From the NCBI GenBank assembly GCA_902793005.1, contig CADBBQ010000001.1, positions 32,860 to 96,859 on the forward strand: DNA of 64,000 bases, in the 5' to 3' direction. The notes beneath the pieces were generated by a model that was not told the origin of the DNA, searched no databases, and was given only the letters and a program-made list of their open reading frames with translations. Of the stretch, positions 20,478-59,614 are shown in pieces; position 1 is the first letter of the stretch; every line of letters begins with the position of its first letter. Made by a program: the position numbers and the translations under genes. Source of the stretch: an uncultured Pseudomonadota bacterium (GTDB lineage: Bacteria > Pseudomonadota > Alphaproteobacteria > Rs-D84).

Positions 20478-20508
20478 AACTATCTGTCCGTATTTTGTTT
20501 ATCACATA

Positions 20509-22026
20509 TTATTGGATTCTGACCACGCGGCATCCCGATACTTGGAATTTCATCAGTTTATCGCACAATGTTTGTGCTTCATCAATGTCCGCCAATGGGC
20601 CAATGCGCAAACGATACATTGCGGCCGACGATACGCCCGAACCTAAATCGCCCACACCTTCGGTATCAATGGCAAAGAACACTTTGTTTTGATATGGAGT
20701 CAAAATTCCAGCACCACCATCGCCACTGAATTTAACTAACAAATCGTTCCAGTATTCTTCCAACGCCTTGGGTGATTTGTCAGACGCAAATTCCACCGCA
20801 ACCCCCGATTGATTAGATTTAATCAACGGAATATTTGATTGTGGCAAATACGAACCGGCTGTTTCGCGCACGGTTGGCATCATCGATGTCCCACCAGATG
20901 TTGTGGAAACATTTGTCGTATTTGTTGACGCACCGTATCCAGCCGGCATATAAACGCCCGTTGCCATTGGATTTGGTACATTTGACATATACATCGGTGT
21001 CGCGGTGTAATCCATTGTGCCACCATACATCGCCGACATATCTGCATCATACGCGATATTGTTTAATGATTGTCCAGACATCATACTTTGCGCAACATTC
21101 GCCTCGGCCAACGCCATAACCGATGCCGTGTCCGCAATCAAGAACGGTTTTTCACGTTTTTTGATACAAACGATGCGTTGACCACTGCGCAACACCATAT
21201 CACCCACAGCCTCGACAATTAATAATCTGCCGTCTTGACCATCGGTGCGGAAACCAACCGGGGATTCGCCACCTTCGATTAATAAAGACACCACCGGTCT
21301 TTGTGTCATTGCGATAACCTTGTCGCCAAAGTCAATATATGTAAATATTTTATCACGCCACACGCGTTCCGGCGCAATTACATAATCGTCCGGGTTTGGA
21401 ACAAAAATATCCAAATCAAATCTGAATTCAGACGGGTCAATTTTCATAGATTTAATCCACGCATAATCTTCGCCGTCAACGCCAACGGTATTCGATGCCG
21501 GCGCCGCCTTTTTAAATATAGAATTCATCCCCCCAGATTGGCGCTGTGGCGTGGCGGTCGCATTTGCAACCGTTGCACCATTGTCCAACACAATATCCAC
21601 CTGGGAATAAGAAATTTCCGAAGAATCTATTGTCCCGGGACTGGACAGGTAAAATATGTATTTATTTCCTGATTGTCCCGTCACAATCATATTTGTATCG
21701 GATTCGCTTGCCTCCATTGGGGTCACATAAAATGTTCGGTCGCCTTGGGTTGCCTCGATTTGATACAAAGATTGGTCGCCAACAACGGCATCAGCAATTT
21801 GTTCGCCGTTTGGCAATGTCACCATTGTCACCATACCATTGCGTAATTTTAAAGGCAAAACCGTCCCCGTTGACCACGCCAATTGTGCGTATCCGGGTTT
21901 CGTACTGCCGGCGGCCATATTTGCGGTTGGGTTTTCCCACGCGCGTTGTACAGCGGCATCGGCGACGCCCACAGACATCAAAATCAACAAAGACACTAAT
22001 CCATTGATTTTTAAAACTTTTAACAT
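20509..22026 (-). CDS. VirB9/TrbG/ComB9-family protein with a C-terminal low-complexity linker and SPOR-like domain (505 aa)
   Basis: Signal peptide MLKVLKINGLVSLLILMSVGVADA. A VirB9 N-domain (GDRTFYVTPMEASESDTNMIVTGQSGNKYIFYLSS) and a VirB9 C-domain (KIFTYIDFGDKVIAMTQRPVVSLLIEGGESPVGFRTDGQDGRLLIVEAVGDMVLRSGQRIVCI). Then about 200 extra residues: a S/T/M/G/Y-rich linker and a terminal SPOR-like segment (...YRLRIGPLADIDEAQTLCDKLMKFQVSGCRVVRIQ). Confidence 0.7.
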   Translation of the reverse strand: MLKVLKINGLVSLLILMSVGVADAAVQRAWENPTANMAAGSTKPGYAQLAWSTGTVLPLKLRNGMVTMVTLPNGEQIADAVVGDQSLYQIEATQGDRTFYVTPMEASESDTNMIVTGQSGNKYIFYLSSPGTIDSSEISYSQVDIVLDNGATVANATATPQRQSGGMNSIFKKAAPASNTVGVDGEDYAWIKSMKIDPSEFRFDLDIFVPNPDDYVIAPERVWRDKIFTYIDFGDKVIAMTQRPVVSLLIEGGESPVGFRTDGQDGRLLIVEAVGDMVLRSGQRIVCIKKREKPFLIADTASVMALAEANVAQSMMSGQSLNNIAYDADMSAMYGGTMDYTATPMYMSNVPNPMATGVYMPAGYGASTNTTNVSTTSGGTSMMPTVRETAGSYLPQSNIPLIKSNQSGVAVEFASDKSPKALEEYWNDLLVKFSGDGGAGILTPYQNKVFFAIDTEGVGDLGSGVSSAAMYRLRIGPLADIDEAQTLCDKLMKFQVSGCRVVRIQ

Positions 22027-22051
22027 CCCTTTCTTCCTTTGTTTTTTTATT

Positions 22052-22813
22052 TTAATTTGCTTGGCGTGTCCAATTTAACGGATCATATTGTTCTTGGTCC
22101 AAGATTTTGCCATCTGGGCCGATAACATTATATTCACTGACACGGAAACCCAACGGGTTTTCCATACGTTCCGCCCAACGAATTGCATTGTTTGCATTAG
22201 ATTCCAATTTCACGCGCAATCTGTATGGTTTACGATATTCCATATCCCCCAACGGCCCATAATTGCACACATATGTAAAACTGACATCATATGTATCGGC
22301 GGTATTTGATGCGACCGTATCAACCACAGAATAACTGGCCGGATATTCAACCGTGCACCGGACATCAAAAGCCTCGTCTAAATCTTGACGGATAACATTT
22401 ACCATATCTGTCATAACGAATTGTCCAAAAACCGTATCTGTTGAACGATTTTTGATAACCCCATCGTCGCTGTACGCCCATTTTGCACGCATAATCGCCA
22501 AATCAGGCACGATTTCATTACGTTCACGAACATATTCGCGAATAAATTGTTTTTTGTAATCGTCCAAATTTTCCGGCATCTGGGTCAACGTCAGTTCTTT
22601 ATCAGTTAAATTTTGCGATGTTAAAAAGAACACCTGGGGACGATTTAACGGGAACATTTTATCCAATGTCCAAACCAATACCCCCAGCACGACCAAGGCC
22701 GTTGCCATAACAAAGGTCATTAATCTAGATATCAAAACTGGCGGTTCTATGCGTTCTGGCACAGGTTTTTCTCCCCCTTTTATTAAATGATTGTAGAAAA
22801 AATATTTATACAT
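22052..22813 (-). CDS. VirB8/ComB8-family protein
   Basis: Short cytoplasmic N-terminus, one transmembrane helix (LMTFVMATALVVLGVLVW) and a periplasmic NTF2-like domain carrying the VirB8 signature NPLGFRVSEY. ORF 22052-22819 begins with TTG; an ATG two codons in (22813) is the likelier start. Confidence 0.75.
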   Translation of the reverse strand: MYKYFFYNHLIKGGEKPVPERIEPPVLISRLMTFVMATALVVLGVLVWTLDKMFPLNRPQVFFLTSQNLTDKELTLTQMPENLDDYKKQFIREYVRERNEIVPDLAIMRAKWAYSDDGVIKNRSTDTVFGQFVMTDMVNVIRQDLDEAFDVRCTVEYPASYSVVDTVASNTADTYDVSFTYVCNYGPLGDMEYRKPYRLRVKLESNANNAIRWAERMENPLGFRVSEYNVIGPDGKILDQEQYDPLNWTRQAN

Positions 22814-22997
22814 ACGCAAGTAAAAAATATATAAAACTTATCTGAAAAGTGCGCCCTGAAAACTGAACGCCGGGGCAAGTTTTTACTTGCGTTAAAATAA
22901 TTAAATCTTTATAATATTTTTCGCTTGATTTTTGCCAATGTTGTGCTAGCCTTGGCAAGAATATCGGTTATATCGTGCGCAACGGGTTTGTCTATCC

Positions 22998-36192: not shown

Positions 36193-37393
36193 GTGTTCAG
36201 AGTTCAAAGTACAAAGCACAAAGTACAATTATGGCAGGATAATTCATTCTCGGACATTCTCCTTCTTTATGAAAGAAGGAGTACCCGAGCAAGCATCGGC
36301 GCGCGAGGGGGAGGTAGTTGTGCACGGCGACAAAGTGAAACGGCGTCGCCATAAAAAAAATTAAAAATCACAACTGCCCCGTCTGACTCGTTGACACTCG
36401 TCATCCACCCCTTCTTTTCCCGTCCCCGCACAGCGGGGCCGCGGTTGAAAAGACGGGGAATATCCAATAATAAATAATTATGCCACAACTGAACTTTGTA
36501 CTCTGTACTCTGAAAACTGCACAACACCCGTTGTGCAAAAAAATATTGCACACGCAATAAAATTTTTTCTATAATACCTTTGTGAATCCGAAACAAGGGA
36601 GTTGGATTCCGGTGGCTTTAGCAGGCCTAAAAACTCCGGTGCAAAGTTTGCATCGTGACTCTCCCAATCTGAAAAACCGATTCGATAATCGGGATGATTG
36701 TGTTTGTTGCATCCATATTTTGCACCGACATTTTTATCACGGTGCCGGAGAAAATTTTTAAATCCCCCTGATGAAAATGTAAATTTTTCCCAGACTGAAA
36801 CCCCCATTATAACATTTTATGTTTGTCGGGGTGCCGCGTACAGCAATGTATGTGGGGTCATTGAGTTTTTGATTTGCTAACACCCCGGCCGCATTCCCGT
36901 TTTTGGATTTGGCGGTGTTTTTTATTTTTTCGCGACTGCGAAAAAATAACAGAGTTCAGAGTGCAAAGTTCAGAGTTCAGTTGATGAATTATTGAATTTG
37001 ACTGTGAACCCAGCCCCGGACATTCCCCGTCGCCAATTTTTACCGAGGTAAAACCGAGGATTAAAAATTGAGCGCCGCGCCGTAGCATTGCGCGTTTTGG
37101 GGGAACGAACCTTGTTTTGTCGGCGAAGGCGGGCAAACCCTCGCGTCAGCACAAAAAGAAGGGGTGGCACGAAACCGTCAGGTTGAGTGACGGGGTAGTT
37201 GTGAAAAAATTACCGCACGGTGGCGTTTTGTTTTGGGAAAATTAAAGGCTCCGAATTCAATTCCCTCGACACAACTGCGTTGTGTCTGCGGGGCACTCCT
37301 CGCTCACGACCAGTTGTGTTTAAACAAAACCAGGCTTTTTGTCCCGAAACAAATCCACCGCACGAACAAAAAGAAAAGAACGGGAGAAAAACT
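36181..37393. repeat. Copy B of the conserved non-coding leader/repeat region (see 4201-5040), longer and with extra internal repeat units
   Basis: Shares the cttctttatgaaagaagg hairpin, acggggtagttgtg units (three, one inverted), the TTGCAC...TATAAT promoter, the conserved block ggtgccgcgtacagcaatgtatgtggggtcattg, and gaacgggagaaaaactATG. Confidence 0.7.
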
Positions 37394-38899
37394 ATGAAAA
37401 AAATATTAAGCCTCGTACTGGGGCTGTTGTGGGCTGTGCCCGTATTGGCACAAGAAAATTATTTATCCGCACTGTCATTATCTGGCACTTTTGTTACGGG
37501 CGCCGAAAAACCATATAAAATCCCCGTACGTGTCAGCAACGGCGAAACATCGCAAACCGGATACATTTACGCCAATGCGCCTGTATATAAATTAAGTAAT
37601 TACGCCGACGTGGTTGATTTTCAAACGGGAAAAATTACACGCAATATTAAAAAAGATGTTTTTACCGGAGCAGAAGCCTGGGGATATTCCGGATATGCAC
37701 CGGGCAGATTATTTATATTTAATAACAACGCAAAAAAAGAACTTGCGCTGGGGGCAAGTAATTATTACCCATTTGTAAACAACATAAGCGAAGATATGCC
37801 AGATAAAAGTTTTTCCATCCAAGGATATTCAACAACCCAAAACGGCATATTTTTAAACGATAAAAGTTATACATCCGCGGCTGCGTGGAAAGCGCATTTA
37901 ACTGAATTATATAATGCGGGACGACCGTTGGAAATATATGTTGTGACAAACACGCCCACGGTCGAAGAAATTAATTTATCAACTTTGCCACAAATGTCTG
38001 GAAATGTGACATACCAAGTAATATTCCCAGAACCACAAATTGCAATTGCTACAACCAAATACAACGAAACGAAATTTTCGCCGCTGAATACGGCGTTGCA
38101 AAATGCGATTTCGGTGGTGGACACGGTCGTGTCGAACACGATTACTCAGGCCGGGCGGATTGCGACTTTGCAGGCACAAAAACAAACCCGACCGAACGAC
38201 ATTGCGGACGACAATGAAAAATGCCCCGCCGGCAAAAAGTGCCTGCTGGTCGAAGACGCCAGCGGTGTCCCACATTGGTACGAGATTGTAACAAGTCGCT
38301 TGCCCGACGGCTATACCGAATTGCAGTATATCGAAAGCACAGGAACGCAGTATATTGATACGGGGATTGTTGGAAAATCCATTGTTGGTATAGAATATGA
38401 TTTTACTATATTGAACGATATTACTGTTGGTAGTTCGTTATTTGGTACTCGTTTATACGGAAATGTTGGTAGCGGAATAAACTTTGGGCACTCTGCAGAC
38501 GGAAAAGTAACAGTAGATTTTTTTGACGGCTACAGATATACCAGTAATTTATCTTTTGAAAAAAATACCCCTTATAGATTAGTAGTCCAAAATAATAAAT
38601 ATACACTGTATAATGCTATTACTGGCGCGACAGTAGACTCGCATACTTTTAATGCCACGACTAGTGATTTGGAATATGTTGCTGTTTTATTTGGTTTAAA
38701 TAATGGCGGAAGCATTAGTGCGGCGAAAGATTCTGTAAAAGTCACAAGTTGTAAAATATATACGACTAATGGTACAGTGAACCTTGTTCCTGCTAAAAAT
38801 CCAGACGGTGTTGTTGGTATGTATGACACGGACAACGGTGTGTTTTACGAAAACAAAGGTACTGGAACATTTATCGGTGGACAGCCCGTATTTAATTAA
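37394..38899 (+). CDS. Secreted paralog B (502 aa) of the family that includes 5041-7269; function unknown
   Basis: Signal peptide MKKILSLVLGLLWAVPVLAQ, the internal ATG of ORF 37220-38899 with the same RBS context as paralog A. The shared cassette is IAIATTKYNETKFSPLNTALQNAISVVDTVVSNTITQAGRIATLQAQKQTRP...CLLVEDASGVPHWYEIV and YTELQYIESTGTQYIDTG. Confidence 0.7.
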   Translation: MKKILSLVLGLLWAVPVLAQENYLSALSLSGTFVTGAEKPYKIPVRVSNGETSQTGYIYANAPVYKLSNYADVVDFQTGKITRNIKKDVFTGAEAWGYSGYAPGRLFIFNNNAKKELALGASNYYPFVNNISEDMPDKSFSIQGYSTTQNGIFLNDKSYTSAAAWKAHLTELYNAGRPLEIYVVTNTPTVEEINLSTLPQMSGNVTYQVIFPEPQIAIATTKYNETKFSPLNTALQNAISVVDTVVSNTITQAGRIATLQAQKQTRPNDIADDNEKCPAGKKCLLVEDASGVPHWYEIVTSRLPDGYTELQYIESTGTQYIDTGIVGKSIVGIEYDFTILNDITVGSSLFGTRLYGNVGSGINFGHSADGKVTVDFFDGYRYTSNLSFEKNTPYRLVVQNNKYTLYNAITGATVDSHTFNATTSDLEYVAVLFGLNNGGSISAAKDSVKVTSCKIYTTNGTVNLVPAKNPDGVVGMYDTDNGVFYENKGTGTFIGGQPVFN

Positions 38900-39320: not shown

Positions 39321-39653
39321 TTAGGCGGCACGGACGTGACGTTCTGCGCCCTCGGTGTCGTTATCCATAATCTTTTTCGCCTCGGCAAAAACCATTTCTT
39401 TGACTTTCAATGCCAAATCGTGTGTTTCCAAGCTTTCGGCCGCAACATCAAAATTATCGGTTCTGATTTGCAAAGACACATACGCACCGACCAATGACGC
39501 GCGTGATAAATCTTCGATAGAACGTGGCGCATTATTGTGACCAATATGCAATTCATCACTTAATGACACGATTTGTCTGTCTTGATTTACCCAAACGGTT
39601 GTGTTTAAAACCTGGTCCAGTGCAATCATTATTTGTTTGATATTTTTTTGCAT
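39321..39653 (-). CDS. Hypothetical protein (110 aa), possibly ZapA-like
   Basis: Size and a vague pattern (IEDLSRASLVGAYVSLQI) resemble ZapA. Divergent from mraZ. Weak. Confidence 0.25.
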   Translation of the reverse strand: MQKNIKQIMIALDQVLNTTVWVNQDRQIVSLSDELHIGHNNAPRSIEDLSRASLVGAYVSLQIRTDNFDVAAESLETHDLALKVKEMVFAEAKKIMDNDTEGAERHVRAA

Positions 39654-39942
39654 TGTGTGGGTCCCTCCTTTCCGGGTGTATTGGTTTGTTTGGTGGTTTA
39701 ACCTGTATTTACAAGCGTATTTACAAAATCAAACCATCGTTTGGTTGTTTTTATTTGCTTTTTTGCCAGAAAACCGGGGTTTTCAGGCGGTTTAGAACTC
39801 TTTCCCCATGTCTATACAAACAGTTTAGAACAAAAACGAATCGCAGGTCAAGAGAAAAAATGATTTATTTGAAAAATATTTTAAAAAATATCAAATTGTC
39901 TTGTAAAACCATAAAATCCCATAATTTGATTATGAATTGTCA

Positions 39943-39971
39943 TTGACAATGGAAAAATCGCGTGCTATTCT
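39943..39971 (+). promoter_or_regulatory. Putative sigma70 promoter for mraZ (TTGACA-17 nt-TATTCT)
   Basis: cattgacaatggaaaaatcgcgtgctattctg, with consensus -35 and near-consensus -10 at 17-bp spacing, about 55 nt upstream of the mraZ ATG. Confidence 0.4.
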
Positions 39972-40027
39972 GAATACACGAAGTACGAAGCGGGCCGGGA
40001 AAGTCCCGAAAAAATTGGGTTATACAG

Positions 40028-40471
40028 ATGTCATTGTTTCTCTCATCTTATGAAAATCGTTTGGATTCCAAGGGGCGGATTTCTGTCCCGGCGTCCTTTC
40101 GTGCTTCGTTAAACAATGAAAAATTTGCCGGCGTGGTGCTGTATCGTTCGTTTACAAATAATTGTATCGAGGGGTTATCAATGTCGCGTATGGAATCTTT
40201 GGCGGCGGCAACCGACAAAATGGGCGTGTTTGATAATACGTTGGATGATTTGTCGGCGATGCTGTTTGCTGATGCGCGGCCATTACAATTTGATGTGACG
40301 GGGCGCATTGTAATCCCGGCGGATTTGTTGGCACACGCGGGAATAGGGGACACGGCATTATTCGTCGGTCGCGGGAACAGTTTTCAAATCTGGGATCCGG
40401 CGGCGTTCCGTGCGGCGCAAGAAAAATCGTTGAAAAATCTGCGCGCGTCGCGTCCGAATTTGGTGATATAA
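40028..40471 (+). CDS. mraZ: Transcriptional regulator MraZ
   Basis: Two SpoVT/AbrB-like halves (NRLDSKGRISVPASFR; VTGRIVIPADLL) with the characteristic DxxxR motifs. 147 aa. Confidence 0.88.
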   Translation: MSLFLSSYENRLDSKGRISVPASFRASLNNEKFAGVVLYRSFTNNCIEGLSMSRMESLAAATDKMGVFDNTLDDLSAMLFADARPLQFDVTGRIVIPADLLAHAGIGDTALFVGRGNSFQIWDPAAFRAAQEKSLKNLRASRPNLVI

Positions 40472-40581
40472 CATCGCATATTTAATACCGAATTTTATCA
40501 GTCAAAAATTTAGCAAAAAAATTTAGCAAAAAACATTAGCAAAAAATTGCCGCAATCTTTCGAAAAATTGCGGCAAAATAA

Positions 40582-40612
40582 AAACCCCGTTTCCGGGGCT
40601 TTATTTTTAGTT
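40582..40612. terminator. Bidirectional terminator between mraZ and the convergent cysteine-rich protein gene
   Basis: aaaaccccgtttccggggctttatttttag. It is preceded by a 3x tandem repeat of aaaaatttagcaaaa at 40495-40540. Confidence 0.55.
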
Positions 40613-42958
40613 GCACGTTGTTCCAGATTTCATACTGCAAGTACCGCCGTTAGGGTTGCTGGTATTAGTGGTCCAAGTGCAAACCAGTCCTTTGGATGTC
40701 GTAGAACCATCAGAGTTCAAGCAATATCCACGCATTTCCCCACATTCGGTGGGATCTGTGATGGATTCACACGCCGTGCGTATTTCGGGTGTTGATTCGA
40801 ACATTTCAATACTGGCGTATGTGCCGGTTACCCAGGTTTTCATTTCGTTCGATGAAATGTTGCCAAAGATATTTCCGTTAACCGACATACACGTTTTGAT
40901 TTGGGCATAGCACGAATTGATTGCTGTTTTAGACTTTGTGCTGTCCGGGTTTGCATCATCATAACTGTTCGAACTCAGGCAGTTTTGAACATCTTTGACG
41001 CAGTCGGTTGCGTATGATGCCAACAATTCGTCTTGTTGCATTTTGATTTGCACCAATGCGCGTTGCATAAAGTTTTTAATAACTTCGTTGTCTTGTTTAT
41101 ATGTTTTTTTGCTGCCCTTGGTTTCATATGTGTAATCTTGGCATTTGTTTAAAACCTCCATACACATACCATAGTCTTTGTTTGAACTGTCGTCGTGATA
41201 TCCGATTTTGTTCTGTAAAAATCCAGACATTTTATCAGACGGTGTTTGTGCCGCGCCCGCAACCACGGTTTGATTTATGTAATCAACCAATGTGATTGCA
41301 TCGCCATTGTTGCCCGTGTTTGTTGGGTCTTTGGCCCACGGGTTTTTGGCGTTTGCACCAGTGCCGACGGTCCAAGTGTTAAACAAGTTTTCGTGTGAAT
41401 ATGTCGAACTGATAGAACCATCGCTGTTTTTGGATACATCTTCGGTGTTATTGCCCGGCATACTGCCCACGACAACCGCACCATTTACGATATATTGACC
41501 GGTTGGATCCATACAACTTTCGTAATCAGAACCGCATACATAATCGTCTTGCATACATGATTCCAAATTCTGGACGCATTGACGCAGGTTGTATTCGTTT
41601 TTATTTTGCGCAACCATCAAACGCGCGCGTTTCAAAACCTCTTTGGCGTTCGCGACGGTTTGTGTCATTTGTTGATTTGATTCGGTCAATGCGCGTTCAT
41701 ATGCCAAACACGCCTTGTCGATTTCCAAATCATATGAATTCGTTACAACGGCGGCGTCAACCCCTTGGGCGGTGCAAGAATTCAAGACAGATGCCCGGCA
41801 ACGCGCAACGGCGGTTTTATATAAAGATTCGCCACGTTGATTTGAAATGCTGTTGGTGTTGTTGGATGTTGTATTCATAAATGTACTTAAATCAAATCCA
41901 AAATCACCCATATCGAAATTTAATAATCCCGATAAATCGAAATTCATTGTGTTGCCCGTGTCAGATACCGATGCGGTGCCACTTTTTACATCGACAACCA
42001 TACGTTTTACGCGGTCCAAACTGGAACGCATAGCGGAATTATCCTTGGCATTTTTCATTGATAATTCGGCCTCGGTCTCGGCAAACAATGTTGTGATTTG
42101 GTCAGCCGATAACCCAATGTATTGAATGTCGCGTGCGACATCTTGTAATGCCTCGGTTGCGGCCTCTAATGCGGCCTCGGTCTTTTCATAATTCTTTAAG
42201 TTTTTGGAACAAGTGCAACGGCCTTGGTTATCATCCAACGCATTACAATAATTATCCATACACGATGCGTATTGCGCCTGGCAATATTCGGTCAGCGCCT
42301 TCATCGTATTCATTTCATTGGTGGTTTCTGTGGCAGATTCCGCGGTTGCAACCGGTGTTGTCGATGCGGCTGTGACACTTGCCGCACGAATAGAGCCGGC
42401 GCGCGTCGCAATCGATGCACGTGCCGCAGATGTTCCCCCACGGGATTGAACCACCGCGTTCGGATTGTATAAAGTTGTTGTTGTATTAATTGATGCCGCG
42501 CGTGCGGTTGAACCCGGACGTTGTTGTGTCGCACCGGTTGTGCTGGCGCCACGACGTGTTGATACAGATGTCGTCCGCATCGGTGTCGTTGTGCCACGTC
42601 CAGACACAACACGTGAACGCACGCTGTTTGTGCGCATTGATGGTGTGCGTGCCGCGCGATTTACCGCCGTCCGCGCCGTTGTCGTCGCGCGTGCACTGGT
42701 GCGCGGCGATGTTGCCTGGCGTGTGGTTTCAGGTTGCGCATCGTTTTTTTCTTCGACGGCACCAGTATCGACGTCATTTAACTCGACATCGGAAAACGTC
42801 AAATCTTCGTCGTAATATGTCGGTACAACCTCGGCAAAGGCCGGTAAAACCAACAAACTGCTAAGCACAACAACCAATCGTTTCATATTTTTCACTCCTA
42901 CTGTTACAAATATTTTATCATATTTAGGGGTATAAAACAAATAAAAAAATAAGTGCAT
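40607..42958 (-). CDS. Large secreted cysteine-rich protein (783 aa) with an N-terminal S/T/R/A low-complexity region; function unknown
   Basis: Signal peptide MKRLVVVLSSLLVLPAFA. Residues ~60-210 are low-complexity (TSPRTSARATTTARTAVNRAARTP...). About 40 Cys then follow in recurring C-x-C-MD-x-Y-C contexts (YCQAQYASCMDNYC...; CVQNLESCMQDDYVCGSDYESCMDPTG), ending ...CTWTTNTSNPNGGTCSMKSGTTCN. Confidence 0.6.
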   Translation of the reverse strand: MHLFFYLFYTPKYDKIFVTVGVKNMKRLVVVLSSLLVLPAFAEVVPTYYDEDLTFSDVELNDVDTGAVEEKNDAQPETTRQATSPRTSARATTTARTAVNRAARTPSMRTNSVRSRVVSGRGTTTPMRTTSVSTRRGASTTGATQQRPGSTARAASINTTTTLYNPNAVVQSRGGTSAARASIATRAGSIRAASVTAASTTPVATAESATETTNEMNTMKALTEYCQAQYASCMDNYCNALDDNQGRCTCSKNLKNYEKTEAALEAATEALQDVARDIQYIGLSADQITTLFAETEAELSMKNAKDNSAMRSSLDRVKRMVVDVKSGTASVSDTGNTMNFDLSGLLNFDMGDFGFDLSTFMNTTSNNTNSISNQRGESLYKTAVARCRASVLNSCTAQGVDAAVVTNSYDLEIDKACLAYERALTESNQQMTQTVANAKEVLKRARLMVAQNKNEYNLRQCVQNLESCMQDDYVCGSDYESCMDPTGQYIVNGAVVVGSMPGNNTEDVSKNSDGSISSTYSHENLFNTWTVGTGANAKNPWAKDPTNTGNNGDAITLVDYINQTVVAGAAQTPSDKMSGFLQNKIGYHDDSSNKDYGMCMEVLNKCQDYTYETKGSKKTYKQDNEVIKNFMQRALVQIKMQQDELLASYATDCVKDVQNCLSSNSYDDANPDSTKSKTAINSCYAQIKTCMSVNGNIFGNISSNEMKTWVTGTYASIEMFESTPEIRTACESITDPTECGEMRGYCLNSDGSTTSKGLVCTWTTNTSNPNGGTCSMKSGTTCN

Positions 42959-42959
42959 T

Positions 42960-43090
42960 AATCGTCATCCCGCGGTCGCGCGGGATCCAGTTTTGCGGAA
43001 CGCAAAACTTGCGTAATAATGCCTAATGACACAAGTTGACGCTTTGCGTCAACTGGATACCGGCCTGCGCCGGTATGACAAAATAACAAG
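42960..43090. repeat. Cluster of four consecutive GC-rich hairpins (dispersed-repeat-like)
   Basis: cccgcggtcgcgcggg; gttttgcggaacgcaaaac; agttgacgctttgcgtcaact; accggcctgcgccggt. The gcgcgggatccag segment recurs at 4319-4340. Confidence 0.55.
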
Positions 43091-43099
43091 GAACCACGA

Positions 43100-43429
43100 T
43101 TAGTGTTGTGCAATAATATGTAAAATAACACTGATGATGAATAATCCGGTTATAACACCCAAGAATATTTTCTGGGGCACGTGGTGGTCGGTGTGGCAAT
43201 CCGCGTCGTCACAACACGGGCATTCGCGTAAAACAAAAATCCAAGACACGCCCAACATTAATGCAGACAAAACAAAAATCCACGGTTCAATCCACTGGGG
43301 AATGTATTCGGCGTGGGCAACCTCGGGCGCAAAGAGTCCCACAATTCCCATTACTACCGGCAACACACAGCAAAAAATGTGTGGCAAAACCGTTGCAATG
43401 ATTCCCAATTTTACAATTTTGTTTTTCAT
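43100..43429 (-). CDS. Small integral membrane protein with a Cys/His metal-binding-like motif; hypothetical
   Basis: Three transmembrane helices plus CPCCDDADCHTDHH. Confidence 0.35.
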   Translation of the reverse strand: MKNKIVKLGIIATVLPHIFCCVLPVVMGIVGLFAPEVAHAEYIPQWIEPWIFVLSALMLGVSWIFVLRECPCCDDADCHTDHHVPQKIFLGVITGLFIISVILHIIAQH

Positions 43430-43558: not shown

Positions 43559-43633
43559 TGGTATCCCCAGCAGGAATCGAACCTGCATCAGAGGTTTAGG
43601 AAACCCCCGTTCTATCCAGTTGAACTATGGGGA
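43559..43633 (-). tRNA. tRNA-Arg (anticodon CCT)
   Basis: Reverse complement: gcgttcgtccccatagttcaactggatagaacgggggtttCCTaaacctctgatgcaggttcgattcctgctggggatacca, with cloverleaf, GTTCGATTC T-loop and encoded CCA. Confidence 0.85.
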
Positions 43634-43755
43634 CGAACGCAAATATTTTAATCAAATTAAAACATAAAATCAACTATTCGCAAAAAAACAAATAAATGTT
43701 GATTTTTTTATGCGTATCGATATAATAATTACGAAAAAACAAAGGGAAATTCAAA

Positions 43756-47321: not shown

Positions 47322-48768
47322 ATGAGGAAGGATTTATTCACTGTTTTGCTTGGAATTTGCGCGTCAACGGCCGCTGTGGCCAGTAACGAAGGGGTGCCTT
47401 CATACTATCAAAAAAACGCGACGTCAATGAATCGGGCGGGGTATGGTGCGTATCAAAATCGTGGTTATACAAATTATACTGGTGCCGGTTCAAAACAGGT
47501 TTTATCTTCGAAATCATATTCTTATAACGTTCCATCCGCGACCCAGCCACCCGCATACAAGGGTATGATGACTGCAAATGGTGTGTCGCGTGCGGCGTCT
47601 GATGACAACGGTTTTTCGGTTTATGGTGGATATGGACGTCGTTTTGCGGACTTTCAATTTACAACATCGGTCAATTCTGTCTTGGAATGGGACGATATGA
47701 TGTTTAACGAATTGACGGCGGGTGCGCGTTATAATTTTTCGGTCCGTAATTTTGATATGATGGCGTTTGGTGAATATACATACGGCAAAATGTCGTCGGG
47801 CGGTCTGTCGATGGATTATGATTTGCGTCCGTATGACGATTCGTATCCAAACGATGGAATATTTACGATTTCCGTTGGTGACCAAAGTGGCGATTCTCAT
47901 CATATGCGTTTTGGAATTGGTGCTCGTAATATTTGGGATATTGGTGGATGGAAATTAACACCAATTGTTGGATATGAAATTTTCAAACACAACCTGCAAA
48001 TGAACGACCATTACTATCCGAACCAAGGGGTATATATCCCATTGATGACGACCGATGGTGATTATGTGTTTGGTGACCCAAACAATTTGGATATTTATTA
48101 TGCTGTTCCAATTGACCAGGCCGAGGCTGCGGCCGAAAATTATTACCAGGTTTGTGTCTCGCCCGACCAAATTCAATTGGCAACGGTCAGTGCGACGGGC
48201 GGTTTAACTGTCGGTAACGCCAGTTTTCCTGATGTTGATGTTTTATCCGGATCAATGCGTTGTGATTGGTGGTGATGGTCCGATTATGATTTCCGGTAAA
48301 ACGCACGAGTATAATACGACGTGGTCTGGTTTTTATATCGGTTTGGAAATTGAAAAGCAAATGACATTGACCGATAAATTGCGTTTTTATGGTCAAATCG
48401 GAATGCCTAAATATTCGTCCGAGGGTATTTGGCCAAATCGTACCGATTGGCAACAAAACCCCAGTTTCCTGGACGAGGGCGACAACGGCGCATTGGCATA
48501 CCAATTGGAAATGGAATATACTATGAAATTGTCAGACCGGCTTAGTTTATCATTAAAGGCCGACACAAATTATTTCCACGTTGATAAAATTGGTGGTGAA
48601 ATTTATTGGGCCGAATATGTCGAATATACCGAGGTTCCTGCCGGTAACGATGATTATGATATTGTCGCAACAAAATGGCCGGCATACACCGAAAAGGTTT
48701 CCGACGCCTTGAAAGAGGCAACCTGGCGTTCATTCGGGTTGTATTTGGGACTGAAATATTCATTTTAA
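47322..48768 (+). pseudogene. Outer-membrane beta-barrel protein gene split by a +1 frameshift (ORFs 47322-48275 and 48232-48768)
   Basis: The first ORF has signal peptide MRKDLFTVLLGICASTAAVA and amphipathic beta-strands. The second ORF has no signal peptide of its own, overlaps in frame+1, continues the same style and ends ...LGLKYSF (C-terminal Phe signature). Confidence 0.5.
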
Positions 48769-54610: not shown

Positions 54611-55123
54611 ATGAAAATCAAGATTTTATACGCGTTGATGGGTTTGTTTTTTGTGTGTGGTGCGCACGCGGCTGATATGACGATTTATTATTCACCAACG
54701 TGTCCGCATTGTCATCACGCGCGTGATTATGCATCGAATAATTTTATTTACGAATATCCAACAATGAATATCACTATGATTGATGTGACGGTGCCTGAAC
54801 ATCGTGCGTTATTCATTGATGTTATAAAAACGTGTGATTTTTCATCAGGTGGCGTGCCGGTAATAAAAATTGGTGATAAATGTTTCCAAGGATTTGCGGA
54901 ATCTATGGCGGATGATATGCGTGCGGCAATTGAAATTGATATGGATGACGCGGCAAAAAAATCTGCGGCGGATGTAAAGCGTGCAATCAGTGAAAACGGT
55001 GATGCATATCGTGATGAACATCCAACACCGGTTGCGACAATTACAGAATACACCGCGACGGGTGACGAAATGCGGAAAAAAAAACGACCGCATCGGACAG
55101 TAAATGGGCATCTTGGGTATTGA
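54611..55123 (+). CDS. Periplasmic thioredoxin-fold thiol:disulfide oxidoreductase (CPHC active site)
   Basis: Signal peptide MKIKILYALMGLFFVCGAHAA, then YYSPTCPHCHHA (CxxC). Confidence 0.55.
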   Translation: MKIKILYALMGLFFVCGAHAADMTIYYSPTCPHCHHARDYASNNFIYEYPTMNITMIDVTVPEHRALFIDVIKTCDFSSGGVPVIKIGDKCFQGFAESMADDMRAAIEIDMDDAAKKSAADVKRAISENGDAYRDEHPTPVATITEYTATGDEMRKKKRPHRTVNGHLGY

Positions 55124-56606: not shown

Positions 56607-58925
56607 TTATCGATTTTGTTGCAAAGAAAATTTTTCTTGTAACAATTTTTGCATTTCTTCAACATTTCGCAACTGGCGTTGTGTATCATCAGGATTATTC
56701 ATAACATCTTTGGCCAATCGTTTTATTTGAGCATCTAAATTACTGATGAAATTTTCTATTTGTACTTCCAAAGATTTAACATCAACCATTGTTGTGTGCG
56801 TTTGTGATACAGGACGCATAATCCGTGGACGTTTTTCGCGTGATTGATTTGCGGCGATGTTGTTTTTTTGTTTGTCCGCAATTTTTTTAGCATATGTTTC
56901 TAATAATTCAGACACATTTAAATAATCCGACCGTTCAACAAAATCTTTGGTAATCGTCACGCCATCCATATTTTGACCTTTGGCGGCATTTGGAATTGCC
57001 ACAGAATTATACATTTTTATTGCCTGTGCATTGTCGCCATGGGCGGCAAAGAAAGCGGTTGCAACCATAATTTTATCATCTGGGTTTATTGTCCAAACAA
57101 TTCGTCTGTTGTCGTTGTTTTCAATATGTTGTGATGCCGCGCGCCCAGATTTTATTTCAGTATTAGGAATAATTTGTTTAGTATTATTTTTATCTATATA
57201 TTGTAAAGGCGTATGTGGTGTTTGTGTTGCATAATTCATATTCACTTTGTTTATTCGTTCCAACACAGAATACAACAAATTCAAACTGTCGCCACAGGCA
57301 TTGCAGATACTTTTCCAAATTTGTTTTGGAATATATTTTTCAATTTTAATTGTTTGTTTTTCTTTTTTAACTTTTGCGACTTTTTTCTCTGCCTGGGTTT
57401 TAGGTGTTGATGTGGTTGTGGGCTTTGGTGTTTCACGAACGGCATCAGTGTTGTATATTTGCAACATCACCTGCTTTAACAAATCCAGTGATTCCATATG
57501 CACGCAAGTAATGGATTGACCGTTGTGCGATTTGGTGCCTGACTTAATTTGTTTGTTTGTTTTTATTGCCAGTCTGACTAATTTTTCCATATCTGCATCA
57601 ATGTCTTTGAAACGTGCATCCGCGCGACACAATTCAACAATTTCTTTACGACTAAGCCATTGTTCGGTTTTTGTTGTTGGGTCTGTTGTTTTTACGACCG
57701 CAACAGGCGCGGCAACATTTTGTTGTGCGTGTTTTTGTTCAATTTGATTTAACGCCGCCACTAAAATATCCTGTAAAGATAACGCGTGTTTTGAATCCCA
57801 AATTTCGATATGTGGATTTTTATCTTGGAATTGTCTGAATTCGCGCAACATTTGTAAATCTTTGGCGGTCGCATTCAGCATTGAACGTGATAACAAAATT
57901 TCACGCACAGATTTTGGAAATTTCATATTCAACAATTCTGAAAAATTTTTCACTGTTCTTGAAAAATCGATTTTCGTTGTGCCGTTTGGTATATCGCCTT
58001 TGAATAAATCCAGTTTCGTATTCGAACAGTCTAAACGTCCGCGAATGCTTTTTGGAAAAACGATTTTTTCGCGTGCACCGGAACAAACGAAATTAGAATT
58101 TATATCAATATTAGAAAAATCAAACGGGATTTTATTTTTTGACACATCGATTTGATGCATAATACGGTAATGTTTTGTGCCGTCTAATTTGAAAACGTCT
58201 GTTTGTGTTCCGTCTTCCAATACGATTGGTAATGCCGGTGGTACAGAATTTTTGATTCGCCCCAGGCAGTTATTAAATTGGTTGATTTTATATACCATAC
58301 CTGAATCGTCAAAAATCACAGTTTCAATAATTTTATTGATTTTTGACATTTTTTCAGATTCCGATTTTGTTGCTTCGATATCTTTTATCAGCAAAAACAG
58401 ATATTCGCGGAAAATTGCCTCGGTTCTGCGTTGACTGTCGGTAATTTCATTTGTGCGAATATTGTTTTCCGCCCAAGAATATAAAAAGTTTACATAATCG
58501 CGTTTTTCTGGGGTTTGTTCCAAAGATGTTTTTGGACGTATTATTAATTTTCTGTGTGTATCCCAGAAATCACGTGATTTTTTCAAACTGGATTCTTGTA
58601 TTGTTATCTTTTCTGTGCCAGATAACATATTTTCACAAAAATCTATAAATCCTTTTTCATCGCCCTGTATAGGGTTTGCTGTAAAATCATTGTATGCATT
58701 GGTTTTGACAATGAAATGATAATCTTTGGAAAAGTAATCCGTGGTATACACCGGCGAATTCACAGGGACAATCACAATGGCGTTTGTTTTGTATAATAAC
58801 CACGCCGCCGCACGCGGATTAATACTGTGCGGAAAAATCACGTGCGAAATCCCATCGCTTGAATCAATGTGTGCACCCATAGCCAGTTCAGCATATGCAC
58901 CAGATAACGATTTTTTTTGTGGCAT
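56607..58925 (-). CDS. Large hypothetical protein (772 aa), AT-rich, next to a serine recombinase; possible effector or cargo protein
   Basis: No signal peptide and no familiar catalytic motifs that I can name. A Lys/Thr-rich linker (TPKPTTTSTPKTQAEKKVAKVKKEKQ). The C-terminal part has a RelE/ParE-like pattern (RRIVWTINPDDKIMVATAFFAAHGDN). Low-GC codon usage unlike its neighbours. Confidence 0.45.
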   Translation of the reverse strand: MPQKKSLSGAYAELAMGAHIDSSDGISHVIFPHSINPRAAAWLLYKTNAIVIVPVNSPVYTTDYFSKDYHFIVKTNAYNDFTANPIQGDEKGFIDFCENMLSGTEKITIQESSLKKSRDFWDTHRKLIIRPKTSLEQTPEKRDYVNFLYSWAENNIRTNEITDSQRRTEAIFREYLFLLIKDIEATKSESEKMSKINKIIETVIFDDSGMVYKINQFNNCLGRIKNSVPPALPIVLEDGTQTDVFKLDGTKHYRIMHQIDVSKNKIPFDFSNIDINSNFVCSGAREKIVFPKSIRGRLDCSNTKLDLFKGDIPNGTTKIDFSRTVKNFSELLNMKFPKSVREILLSRSMLNATAKDLQMLREFRQFQDKNPHIEIWDSKHALSLQDILVAALNQIEQKHAQQNVAAPVAVVKTTDPTTKTEQWLSRKEIVELCRADARFKDIDADMEKLVRLAIKTNKQIKSGTKSHNGQSITCVHMESLDLLKQVMLQIYNTDAVRETPKPTTTSTPKTQAEKKVAKVKKEKQTIKIEKYIPKQIWKSICNACGDSLNLLYSVLERINKVNMNYATQTPHTPLQYIDKNNTKQIIPNTEIKSGRAASQHIENNDNRRIVWTINPDDKIMVATAFFAAHGDNAQAIKMYNSVAIPNAAKGQNMDGVTITKDFVERSDYLNVSELLETYAKKIADKQKNNIAANQSREKRPRIMRPVSQTHTTMVDVKSLEVQIENFISNLDAQIKRLAKDVMNNPDDTQRQLRNVEEMQKLLQEKFSLQQNR

Positions 58926-59014: not shown

Positions 59015-59614
59015 TTACCACCCCATCCGATTTATAAATCGGGACAAAGTTGCGTGTTTCACCCCCACGATTTTTGCGATTTTATACCGTGTCATCCCCA
59101 TATCCAGTAATTTTTTTACCTTTTTTGCGTTATCAGACAATTTTAATTTTTTTGACTGCGCGGCAAAAGGACGCCCCAATCGCTTGCCGGACGCGCGTAC
59201 ACTTTCCAGGGACGCTTTTGTTCGTTGTGATATCAGGTTGCGTTCGATTTCCGCGGACAGACCAAATGCGAAAGCCATAACCTTGCTTTGAATATCGTTC
59301 CCCAATCGGTAATTTTCTTTCAGTGTCCATACTTGGCAATTTTTATTTAAACACGATTCTAAAATCCGCATAACTTCCAACAATGACCGCCCCAGGCGCG
59401 ATATTTCGGCGGCGATTAAAATATCGCCGTTATTCAAACTGTCTAATAATTGTCCTAATTTTCGTTTGCTTAACGCCTTGCGCGAAGAAATTGTTTCCAT
59501 TACCCATTTATCAATTAGAATATGATTTTTTTTTGCAAACTGTTCAATTTCGAACCGCTGGTGTTGCAGCGTTTGTTTTGTTGACGACACACGAATATAT
59601 CCGATAATAGCCAT
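59015..59614 (-). mobile_element. Serine recombinase (resolvase/invertase family)
   Basis: N-terminal catalytic domain with the nucleophile Ser (MAIIGYIRVSSTKQTLQHQR), a conserved RLGRS region, and a C-terminal HTH (TRYKIAKIVGVKHATLSRFI). 199 aa, the typical resolvase/Hin size. Confidence 0.88.

Follow-up and report, generated by a model that had tools for sequence, protein, structure and literature searches.

A predicted exported cysteine-rich protein with a strain-variable tail, encoded beside a solitary mraZ in the order Rs-D84: a candidate partner-recognition protein

The Hcp proteins of Helicobacter (Sel1-like repeat) are signal-peptide proteins in which helix pairs are cross-linked by regularly spaced disulfides. 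Chlamydial OmcB, an envelope protein with a signal peptide and about 24 cysteines, has a basic region at its N-terminus that is implicated in the binding of anionic glycans. We analysed a gene of an Rs-D84 bacterium within a 64-kb window, the whole stretch of DNA considered here, and compared its predicted product with these and other systems. Like Hcp, it is a signal-peptide protein of a host-associated proteobacterium and has helices with regularly spaced cysteines, its disulfides being putative. Unlike Hcp, it lacks repeat periodicity; its helical core, present as a single copy, is much longer, and it has an arginine-rich linker and a variable tail; no Sel1 repeat (PF08238) was detected in the protein (database entry P0001) or in 46 alignment members, even at E <= 1. 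With OmcB it shares the signal peptide, the N-terminal basic region, about 24 cysteines and, by prediction, a place in the envelope of a bacterium whose envelope biology is unusual. However, OmcB is beta-rich (Chlam_OMP6/DUF11 repeats), whereas the modelled core of our protein is mainly helical and its basic tract is far longer; Pfam searches revealed no Chlam_OMP6/DUF11 domain. CHCH proteins (twin CX9C or twin CX3C) also carry two cysteines on one helix face, which gives a disulfide ladder with a neighbouring helix; the corresponding pairings are putative in our protein. CHCH proteins, by contrast, are small proteins of the eukaryotic mitochondrial intermembrane space; in our protein the cysteines are separated by six residues (one heptad), and the sequences are unrelated.

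A conserved scaffold with a cysteine-rich or disulfide-bounded distal part that differs by strain via recombination or allele replacement links the protein to the hypervariable disulfide loop of type IV pilins, to the helical-bundle receptors of trypanosomes and to the VSPs of Giardia, and so does a stalk of long helical bundles. Differences are the absence of homology and of a membrane anchor, and the bacterial diderm context; the best structural match to a trypanosome surface protein (5vtl) had an E value of 2.2 and TM scores of 0.13-0.30 in Foldseek. The polymorphic toxins CdiA-CT and Rhs-CT have a similar layout, with a conserved N-terminal body, a sharp breakpoint and alternative C-terminal cassettes within one species. 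The protein differs from them in lacking a downstream immunity gene and any known pre-toxin motif, in its small cysteine-rich tails of binding type and in a Sec signal peptide in place of T5/T6/T7 delivery.

The gene lies in an uninterrupted open reading frame on the minus strand (40607-42958), convergent with mraZ. Of the 783-aa protein proposed in the initial annotation, the reading frame stood, its start did not. The true start is most likely the ATG at 42886, M25 of the frame, yielding 759 aa, since an AGGAG is located 8 nt upstream, the identical database protein P0001 (759 aa) is called from M25 and the family consensus begins with MKR. The 24 in-frame codons upstream of this ATG (42887-42958) are probably untranslated. 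The gene is monocistronic, its GC content of 0.44-0.47 matches the rest of the window, and no paralog was present in the 64-kb window; our best explanation assumes a single family copy in the genome. Its four parts, from N- to C-terminus, are a signal peptide, about 170 aa of disordered linker, a core of some 480 aa that is mostly helical, and a cysteine-rich beta tail of 88 aa (Table 1).

Table 1 Features of the locus and of the encoded protein (positions in the 64-kb window, residues of the 759-aa protein)
Feature	Position	Strand	Basis or remark
13-nt tandem repeat AAAAATTTAGCAA, three good copies and degenerate flanking copies	40504..40555	.	
Second palindromic hairpin, 13-15 bp stem, convergent intergenic region	40547..40576	.	
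GC-rich hairpin with A/T-run flanks, bidirectional terminator-like, common to the gene and mraZ	40581..40602	.	found on both strands
Solitary mraZ	40028..40471	+	convergent with the gene; Pfam MraZ 5e-21, NCBIfam MraZ 1.5e-45
Coding sequence, 759 aa (most likely start)	40607..42886	-	stop codon 40607-40609; ORF, P0001 identity, MKR consensus
Variable tail, residues 672-759 (88 aa), 6 Cys, predicted small beta-rich module	40610..40873	-	pLDDT 74-95 with beta strands
Conserved core, residues 189-671, long helices and small mixed alpha/beta subdomain, 18 Cys	40874..42322	-	AlphaFold2, homolog alignment
Conserved loop, residues 301-344, alternating hydrophobic/acidic pattern NFDLSGLLNFDMGDFGFDLSTF	41855..41986	-	pLDDT 42-47, unstructured in monomer model
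Disordered linker, residues 19-188	42323..42832	-	composition; pLDDT ~30
Signal peptide, residues 1-18, MKRLVVVLSSLLVLPAFA, predicted cleavage between AFA and EV, no lipobox Cys	42833..42886	-	hydropathy, family conservation
Shine-Dalgarno AGGAG	42895..42899	-	8 nt 5' of ATG at 42886; read from sequence
Four-hairpin palindromic element between upstream MerC-like gene and promoter region of the gene	42964..43079	.	RNA fold z = -5.3
Exported thioredoxin/glutaredoxin-like protein, CPHC motif (DsbA-type)	54611..55123	+	signal peptide and CPHC read; weak glutaredoxin-like matches

The signal peptide and the long S/T/R/A-rich low-complexity region described in the initial annotation were both recovered. 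Rule-based inspection classified the N-terminus as a Sec-type, non-lipoprotein signal (MKR, LVVVLSSLLVLP and AFA before EV, no lipobox cysteine), and no other 19-residue window of the protein exceeds 1.6 on the Kyte-Doolittle scale. In 122 homologs the region is kept as MKRxxxxLxGLLxLPAFAEVAP, and about 92% of 239 N-terminally complete homologs passed a crude signal-peptide test. The linker begins with an acidic head (net -10), followed by an Arg/Ser/Thr/Ala tract (net +16) of 131 aa with 18 arginines, no lysine, 2 acidic residues and 48 serines or threonines. Across the family the tract comprises about 55% R/S/T/A, with 12% R+K against 7% D+E.

A word-indexed search retrieved over 1,095 homologs, and at the 50% level there were 592 representatives. 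In GTDB species genomes 303 matching stretches were found, all of them in gut or rumen Alphaproteobacteria, Enterousia or 'Rickettsiales' MAGs. By this distribution the family, a predicted exported protein family that was previously undescribed, is restricted to the order Rs-D84 (Candidatus Enterousia) and related gut MAGs labelled Rickettsiales by NCBI. The neighbourhood rpoC-plsX-mraZ...HU-M13 is found again in genomes that carry the label Enterousia or uncultured Alphaproteobacteria, and it holds in relatives with only 50-78% identity. Among 85 loci of relatives, all of which contain the gene by construction, 42 had mraZ within 10 kb. Downstream of the gene lies the convergent mraZ in this genome; relatives have HU, DUF3419 or GIY-YIG at this place. 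Genes for envelope and lipid functions are located nearby (plsX, an SLT lytic transglycosylase, a porin-like gene and acyltransferases), in relatives also a PLD-type gene. Some Enterousia carry a tandem duplicate of the gene, and a termite-gut MAG has an array of at least three paralogs.

The initial annotation had described an accessory gene inserted into the dcw cluster behind mraZ. The 64-kb window contains no rsmH, ftsL, ftsI or mur genes at all. In the locus gene tables that were read, mraZ was next to plsX or to a 110-aa gene without annotation, and no member of a dcw-type family adjoined it; with the 110-aa gene it forms a conserved divergent pair that was extracted in 38 genomes. As mraZ was solitary in every locus examined, its isolation is a lineage trait and not an insertion scar. 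For annotation this means that a solitary mraZ is normal in the order Rs-D84 and is not to be read as a disrupted dcw cluster. A recently inserted accessory or island gene is not supported, given the conserved neighbourhood, the 303 matches in species genomes, the window-like GC content and the lack of an adjacent integrase; the nearest mobility gene is a resolvase at 59015-59614. Wide conservation in relatives in the same context, which the initial annotation had named as a refuting observation, thus spoke against the insertion. The idea of an effector or adhesin survives it, because all those relatives are bacteria with reduced genomes and probably depend on partners (PMC12306168). Genomes of Rs-D84 are mostly below 1 Mbp and lack biosynthetic pathways and standard transporters, and a dependence on partner cells has been proposed; with regard to cell contact, this survey of genomes names no more than 'hypothetical membrane-bound proteins' (PMC12306168).

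The AlphaFold2 model, built from 122 sequences, had a mean pLDDT of 84.3 and a pTM of 0.66. Pfam and NCBIfam searches with the protein and a PDB sequence-profile search at E <= 1 gave no match, and Pfam searches with the 46 alignment members at E <= 1 produced coiled-coil-type noise only (FTA4 in 25 members, best E = 3e-4). Foldseek with the model returned nothing significant, with best E values of 0.71 in PDB and 0.78 in BFVD. The absence of a housekeeping counterpart, suspected from the beginning, thus extended to the model search. In the confident model the core would represent a fold without detectable relative in the PDB. Its NFDLSGLLNFDMGDFGFDLSTF loop keeps the pattern down to homologs of about 30% identity.

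Some 40 cysteines in recurring C-x(n)-C-MD-x-Y-C contexts had been noticed earlier. The actual count is 24, with 18 in the core and 6 in the tail; they lie in the second half of the protein. The proposed motif occurs strictly once (CMDNYC) and in two looser variants; the recurrent pattern is C-x6-C, with pairs at 226/233, 461/468/475/482, 599/606, 653/660, 683/690 and 739/746 in ORF numbering. Cysteines make up 3.7% of the core and 6.8% of the tail, compared with 0.97% in 37 other proteins of the window. All 18 core cysteines were retained in 300 of 301 homologs at a mean column identity of 16%. The sole exception, P0177, had lost C14 and C183 together; with this single event and otherwise invariant cysteines, the co-loss analysis has almost no power. 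A spacing of i/i+7 corresponds to two helical turns on one helix face and hence fits ladder-like inter-helix disulfides, not a single metal site. The core cysteines are probably structural and paired as disulfides, the individual bond pairs being putative. Specific helix pairings derived from equal sums of cysteine positions were withdrawn, as such sums are a tautology for any two Cx6C motifs. The published 'CX6C' literature concerns only the retroviral and filoviral CX6CC chain-reversal loop, a different context.

The tail behaves differently from the core. In the species cluster of the studied genome, 51% of the tail sites were variable versus 3.1% of the core sites; in four clusters the within-species density of variable sites was 22-51% in the tail versus 0.9-6.6% in the core, of which some could originate from mixed closely related species and not from strains. 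The variation consists of discrete alternative whole-tail alleles within species that start at sharp breakpoints and keep most alignable cysteines; one tail site had five alleles. Among relatives the tail measures between 0 and about 1,650 aa, with cysteine-rich repeats at 6.5% Cys, and the tail of P0233 contains Flg_new (Listeria-Bacteroides-type) repeats. Judged from these alignments, the tail is a strain-variable cassette exchanged as a whole on a nearly invariant core. Tail swapping and expansion are the pattern expected of an exposed part under selection from outside, for instance by phage, host immunity or a receptor on partner cells. Against the loci L006 and L007, the core and the porin-like gene showed similar divergence (74-78%); mraZ, HU and rpoC were 92-97% identical.

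The flanking repeats were found much as initially annotated: the bidirectional terminator with the threefold repeat of 13-nt period on one side and a cluster of four hairpins on the other. Conservation of the AAAAATTTAGCAA repeat stops at the closest relative. The four-hairpin element is 98.5% identical in L006, where the flanking proteins are 76-82% identical, and its hairpin 4 recurs in distant genomes. It is probably a REP/MITE-like element and not part of the function of the protein. Rfam searches of the element and the terminator region gave no match except a tRNA at 43562-43634.

Other secretion-related genes noted in the window were also confirmed. Homologs of VirB8, VirB9 and VirB10, core components of a type IV secretion system (T4SS), are encoded at 18021-22819. 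Two secreted proteins (5041-7269 and 37220-38899) are paralogs of each other, not of the protein studied here. The gene for the CPHC protein is 12 kb away; the protein is conserved in the lineage, with the motif kept as YYSP[ST]CPHCHH in L032, L037, L040, L054 and L087. This protein may be the periplasmic disulfide oxidase for the cysteine-rich protein and for other exported cysteine-rich proteins.

For the function we give about an even chance to an exposed adhesin or partner-recognition protein, in which a disulfide-stapled scaffold would display a diversifying binding module. The precursor would be exported by Sec, as its sequence features suggest, and lose 18 residues to signal peptidase I. 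In the periplasm, the 18 core and 6 tail cysteines would be oxidized to disulfides, probably by the CPHC oxidoreductase. Locked together by these disulfides, the long helices would form a rigid scaffold whose fold has no counterpart in the PDB. The C-terminal cysteine-rich beta module would be the specificity end, swapped between strains and expanded in other species, and the linker, basic by arginine only, may hold the protein on the anionic envelope or on anionic glycans of a host or partner. In favour of this reading, there is no hydrophobic segment besides the signal peptide and no lipobox. From the initial suggestion of a surface or secreted effector/adhesin-like protein, the exposed, interaction-type character gained support from the tail cassettes, tail expansion, tandem paralogs and porin-like divergence; the exposure itself is deduced from variation patterns only. 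Neither a beta-barrel, a lipid anchor, an autotransporter domain nor an adjacent secretion gene was found for the protein, and the lack of an obvious outer-membrane route for a soluble disulfide-rich Sec substrate counts against an adhesin. The neighbours are housekeeping and envelope genes that fit a periplasmic role equally well, and the tail of the studied protein is short (88 aa); both speak against an adhesin. So does the habitat, which is strongly reducing, and the lineage reportedly has no respiratory chains, making the formation and upkeep of disulfides puzzling.

An unlikely alternative, in our estimate, is an envelope scaffold that stays between the membranes. The Arg-rich linker would bind peptidoglycan or phospholipid head groups and the helical core would act as spacer or organiser of the Lpp or Tol-Pal type in a genome short of standard envelope proteins. 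Such a role would suit the lineage-wide conservation, the fixed position among envelope and lipid genes, a signal peptide without recognisable outer-membrane targeting feature and the near invariance of the core within species. Unexpected for a scaffold, however, are strain-swapped tail cassettes of 0 to about 1,650 aa with adhesin-type repeats and the tandem paralog arrays. Still less probability is given to a partner of the T4SS, that is, a protein brought by Sec to the periplasm and then released or displayed by the VirB-type system, similar to pertussis toxin, or acting as pilus-tip adhesin like VirB5 or CagL. The Ptl T4SS secretes pertussis toxin, a Sec substrate with disulfide bonds; VirB5 and CagL are signal-peptide adhesins of the helical-bundle type; and the VirB8/VirB9/VirB10 homologs belong to the only outer-membrane-spanning machine seen in the window. 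However, the gene is about 20 kb distant from the virB genes, and no T4SS gene occurred in the inspected gene tables of relatives, T4SS genes not having been queried in the comparison of 85 loci. Membership among the VirB5/TraC/CagL-type adhesins was rejected, as the protein has no sequence or fold similarity to them in Pfam or Foldseek and is not encoded in the virB operon.

We consider it just as improbable that a secreted membrane-active or toxic protein is encoded. Its tail would bind the target cell, and the conserved amphipathic loop, folding only on oligomerisation, would insert into the target membrane like the stem or tongue of a pore-forming toxin and free metabolites for a scavenger; a variant of this reading is a polymorphic toxin. 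A lineage devoid of transporters and biosynthesis (PMC12306168) could benefit from this activity. The conserved loop with its strict hydrophobic/polar alternation is flanked by long helices and has no structure in the monomer model, the alternative C-terminal cassettes are preceded by sharp breakpoints, and the noise-level Foldseek matches include ClyA, AhlB, YaxAB and Tc toxins. Yet these matches are non-significant (E >= 0.7, TM <= 0.3) and reflect long helices only, so that membership in the ClyA/Hbl/YaxAB-type alpha-pore-forming toxins was rejected for want of a significant fold match. The loop is aspartate-rich, and disulfide-stapled helices argue against the large refolding of alpha-pore-formers. 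The tails are small cysteine-rich beta modules and repeats, not enzyme-like. A polymorphic toxin was rejected despite the variable cassettes, since no immunity-like small ORF follows the gene and no toxin domain was matched.

Members of Rs-D84/Enterousia are common in the guts of humans, ruminants, birds and termites and are thought to live off partner cells. The family is a concrete candidate for partner contact: it occurs throughout the lineage sample, is large for such small genomes and is predicted to be exported, with a near-frozen core and a swapped tip. It also poses a biochemical question, namely how a strictly fermentative gut anaerobe would make and keep at least nine disulfides in an exported protein. 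Extending the adhesin reading, the protein might be the principal cell-contact organelle protein of Rs-D84. A disulfide-laddered stalk of new fold, oligomerising via the NFDLSGLLNFDMGDFGFDLSTF loop and either shown on the cell or released through a so far unrecognised route, perhaps the VirB-type T4SS, would carry a strain-specific tip that selects partner cells (bacteria, gut protists, host epithelium or mucus) and attaches to or permeabilises them. We regard this as speculative and rather doubtful. If it were true, the family would be the determinant of the host or partner range in widespread uncultured gut symbionts with tiny genomes.

The open reading frame of the initial annotation was present on the minus strand without interruptions, convergent with a genuine mraZ gene on the plus strand (Pfam MraZ 5e-21, NCBIfam MraZ models up to 1.5e-45). 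Translation probably does not begin at the first in-frame ATG, and the product is probably shorter than the annotated 783 aa: a perfect AGGAG precedes the ATG at 42886 by 8 nt, an identical protein in the database (P0001, 759 aa) starts with this codon, and the family consensus opens with MKR. Residues are counted here from ATG 42886, whereas ORF numbers begin 24 codons earlier. Residues 1-18 are the sole hydrophobic segment (maximal Kyte-Doolittle value 2.23 in a 19-residue window, elsewhere none above 1.6) and have the classical n/h/c layout of the proposed signal peptide, ending AFA/EV, with no lipobox cysteine. The following residues 19-188 are disordered (pLDDT ~30). They open with an acidic head (net -10) and continue in a tract of 131 aa with 18 Arg, 0 Lys, 2 acidic and 48 Ser/Thr residues (net +16); this annotated S/T/R/A-rich low-complexity region was found family-wide, with ~55 % R/S/T/A. 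The core, in contrast, has more Lys than Arg and a net charge of -18.

Coordinates of the gene, its protein regions, neighbouring features and related loci
Feature	Position	Strand	Remark
Cysteine-rich exported protein, ORF	40607-42958	-	
Conserved core	residues 189-671		
Cys-rich tail	residues 672-759		
mraZ	40028-40471		
110-aa gene	39321-39653	-	
Divergent intergenic region, 110-aa gene/mraZ	39654-40027		
13-nt tandem repeat	40504-40555		
Hairpin	40547-40576		
Hairpin	40581-40602		terminator-like on both strands
Four hairpins	42964-43079		RNA fold z = -5.3 vs shuffles
Four-hairpin palindromic element	42960-43095		132 nt; 9795-9926 in L006
Fourth-hairpin recurrences	L022 5748, 7811, 13329, 15520		
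MerC/MerT-like gene	43100-43429	-	
VirB8, VirB9, VirB10 homologs	18021-22819	-	
Paralogous secreted proteins	5041-7269; 37220-38899	+; +	second start likely near 37394
Pom-like porin gene	47322-48768		ORFs 47322-48275 and 48232-48768
CPHC protein	54611-55123	+	
772-aa ORF	56607-58925	-	no family match
Serine resolvase/invertase gene	59015-59614	-	
Family array, termite-gut MAG GCA_031283185	L086 1-1619 and 7677-14125		

All DNA features listed as flanking the gene were found. The four-hairpin element is 98.5 % identical in another species (locus L006), where the proteins on its flanks are merely 76-82 % identical. Distant genomes contain up to four copies of its fourth hairpin, ATACCGGC-n4-GCCGGTAT. 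A comparison with Rfam gave no match, and the element resembles mobile or structured elements of the REP/MITE type.

An AlphaFold2 model of core and tail, built on a 122-sequence alignment (mean pLDDT 84.3, pTM 0.66), presents several long helices, which reach 50 residues, along with a small mixed subdomain; the tail is rich in beta structure. A 44-residue loop (window 41855-41986), unstructured in the model, is conserved to ~30 % identity with alternating hydrophobic and acidic residues (NFDLSGLLNFDMGDFGFDLSTF; DLDIDLDFS in distant members) and could be an oligomerisation or insertion element. The annotated lack of a housekeeping counterpart held in every search. Pfam and NCBIfam gave no match to the protein, all 46 members of a diverse alignment scanned at E <= 1 yielded coiled-coil-type noise only, and a profile search of all PDB sequences at E <= 1 returned nothing. 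Foldseek with the confident model reached best E-values of 0.71 in PDB and 0.78 in BFVD, the listed matches being generic long-helix proteins with TM <= 0.3. The modelled fold is without detectable relative in PDB and BFVD.

Instead of the annotated ~40 cysteines, 24 were counted, and the supposedly recurring context C-MD-x-Y-C occurs strictly once. The repeated spacing is C-x6-C (ORF residues 226/233, 461/468/475/482, 599/606, 653/660, 683/690 and 739/746). Cysteine content is 3.7 % in the core and 6.8 % in the tail; for 37 other window proteins it is 0.97 %. The cysteine pattern is conserved in homologs: of the 301 that cover these columns, 300 retain the full set of 18 core cysteines, in an alignment with a mean column identity of 16 %. 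The core cysteines are predicted to be structural. In the sole exception, the homolog P0177, both C14 and C183 (core numbering; ORF C226 and C395) are replaced within cleanly aligned flanks, and this joint loss is a single hint that the two may be bonded to each other. Most cysteines are situated in predicted helices at i/i+7, a distance of two turns or roughly 10 Å on one helix face; this geometry would suit two separate inter-helix disulfide rungs rather than one tetrahedral metal site. Specific helix pairings derived from equal sums of cysteine positions were withdrawn, as any two Cx6C motifs satisfy the test. The window also encodes an exported protein with signal peptide, a small thioredoxin/glutaredoxin-like fold and the DsbA-type active-site motif CPHC. 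Conserved as YYSP[ST]CPHCHH in five related loci, a distant termite-gut genome included, it is a plausible candidate for a minimal periplasmic disulfide oxidase. Respiratory chains are reported absent from its lineage, Rs-D84 (PMC12306168).

The family comprises more than 1,095 matches in an indexed search and 592 representatives at 50 % identity. Its members come from MAGs of rumen, faecal and termite-gut origin, which bear the labels Candidatus Enterousia, Alphaproteobacteria bacterium or uncultured Rickettsiales bacterium. In GTDB, Enterousia belongs to the order Rs-D84, whose mostly sub-1-Mbp genomes are devoid of most biosynthesis, respiration and standard transporters; a dependence on partner cells has been proposed (PMC12306168). 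Window proteins were compared with 85 loci of relatives. Most of these loci share the neighbourhood of the gene, with local rearrangements: rpoC, plsX, mraZ, the 110-aa gene, a MerC-like gene, HU, an M13 peptidase, a radical SAM gene, a porin-like gene and SLT. In 42 of them mraZ lies within 10 kb of the gene. No dcw-type family was found beside mraZ in the locus gene tables read; its flanks are plsX or the unannotated 110-aa gene, which argues for the solitary mraZ as a trait of the whole lineage. Together with the conserved neighbourhood, this speaks against the annotated insertion into a broken division and cell wall (dcw) cluster and against an accessory or island gene; judged by sequence comparison, the gene is a conserved core gene. 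Otherwise the window contains housekeeping genes (rpoBC, ribosomal proteins, nusG, yidC, lpxD, lgt, lspA, plsX, proS-like, mdh), with the VirB homologs embedded among them.

The 110-aa protein is highly conserved (75-98 % identity). Its gene was extracted as a pair with mraZ from 38 genomes, and the intergenic region contains strongly conserved blocks (>= 80 % across these genomes). Within such blocks are a direct repeat of two GTATTTACAA with 12-nt spacing (39705-39727) and a promoter-like TTGACA-17-TATTCT (39943-39971). The region is a candidate MraZ operator region, and MraZ appears to be retained in Rs-D84 as a regulator paired with the 110-aa protein, not rsmH. Directly upstream of the cysteine-rich gene, the 109-aa membrane protein with weak similarity to MerC/MerT carries two adjacent cysteines (CC) within its first TM helix as well as the motif CPCC...C..H.HH; its gene is conserved in 57 of the 85 loci. 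The gene of the Pom-like porin (Protochlamydia outer membrane protein) is split by a frameshift. Contig L001, otherwise 99.85 % identical, has 17 extra bases and a single gene (487 aa); the split reflects either a disruption specific to the strain or an error in the assembly. Apart from the serine resolvase/invertase gene, which the 772-aa ORF adjoins, no gene of a mobility type was noticed in the window.

Family conservation stops at about core residue 500, and the tail beyond comprises 0 to ~1,650 residues. Extensions above 150 aa average ~6.5 % cysteine. The one examined in full, in the homolog P0141, consists of repeated small Cys-rich modules, e.g., CTNAGGTWNGTTCxCG..., and one family member carries Listeria-Bacteroides (Flg_new) repeats. 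Within species, four clusters of sequences at least 90 % identical, from different samples, had 22-51 % variable sites in the tail versus 0.9-6.6 % in the core. The within-cluster alignments revealed discrete alternative tails with sharp breakpoints, most alignable cysteines being kept. In the gene's own cluster the P0293 allele has its entire tail replaced after ...TGTYASIE, and the tail site ORF T764 is occupied by five different residues; in a second species, forms of 816 and 833 aa split after ...QGG[ST]W, and a third has two alternative C-termini. Core identity to the closest species other than its own (L006, L007) is 76-78 %, about as high as for the porin-like gene (74-75 %); mraZ, HU, the 110-aa gene and rpoC reach far higher values (92-98 %). 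In some Enterousia the gene is duplicated in tandem at this chromosomal position, with 61 % identity between the copies, and the termite-gut MAG has at least three tandem paralogs plus others. Whereas Enterousia keep the family in a conserved housekeeping context, this array has the surroundings of a variable region. It adjoins a 1,851-aa protein for which Chlam_PMP (polymorphic membrane protein) gave a faint signal; genes for Bro-N, RhuM and restriction-modification are nearby.

At the sequence level, the protein has an export signal, a defined domain layout, invariant cysteines, lineage restriction, a conserved location and a diversified tail. After predicted Sec export and cleavage by SPase I, the CPHC protein would oxidise its cysteines and yield a disulfide-stapled helical scaffold. 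The Arg-only tract may tether it electrostatically to anionic envelope or glycan surfaces, and the tail would serve as the module for binding or specificity, facing partner cells, host or phage. We give an exposed adhesin or recognition protein about even chances: by analogy, a frozen scaffold whose Cys-framed tip can be exchanged, combined with expanded repeats and amplified genes, is typical of such proteins. The same traits are hard to square with a purely periplasmic housekeeping role, and a periplasmic scaffold is rather unlikely. As for a route across the outer membrane, neither a beta-barrel or lipid anchor nor an autotransporter or neighbouring secretion gene was found. The sharp-breakpoint tail cassettes are reminiscent of polymorphic toxins, but no immunity gene follows the gene here or in the relatives' loci inspected and the tails are not enzyme-like; a membrane-active or polymorphic toxin is improbable.

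There is also a slim chance of a T4SS-linked protein, the connection to a VirB-type system being only a possibility. The annotated T4SS-core genes were recovered (VirB10-like, 818 aa; VirB9/CagX-like with SPOR domain, 505 aa; VirB8-like, 255 aa), with a sigma-70 gene on one side and the nusG/ribosomal protein cluster on the other; they are a chromosomal T4SS core kept in a very small genome. Likewise recovered were the two paralogous secreted proteins (~39 % identity over 475 aa), which have signal peptides, had no match in Pfam or NCBIfam and are unrelated to the cysteine-rich protein. The second gene occurs in only 6 of the 85 related loci and behaves like a variable accessory gene, unlike the cysteine-rich one.

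In its working principle the protein resembles scaffold-plus-variable-tip surface proteins, and as a disulfide-stapled helical protein it may be likened to Hcp/Sel1 proteins and CHCH hairpins. With chlamydial OmcB it shares a signal peptide, a basic N-terminus and ~24 cysteines. It was placed outside all these groups, since the tests for their defining domains or folds were all negative. The protein represents, in this genome, a hitherto undescribed family that spans the lineage of these gut bacteria and combines a fold without detectable relative, a conserved and putatively rigid core, and a tip that varies between strains.
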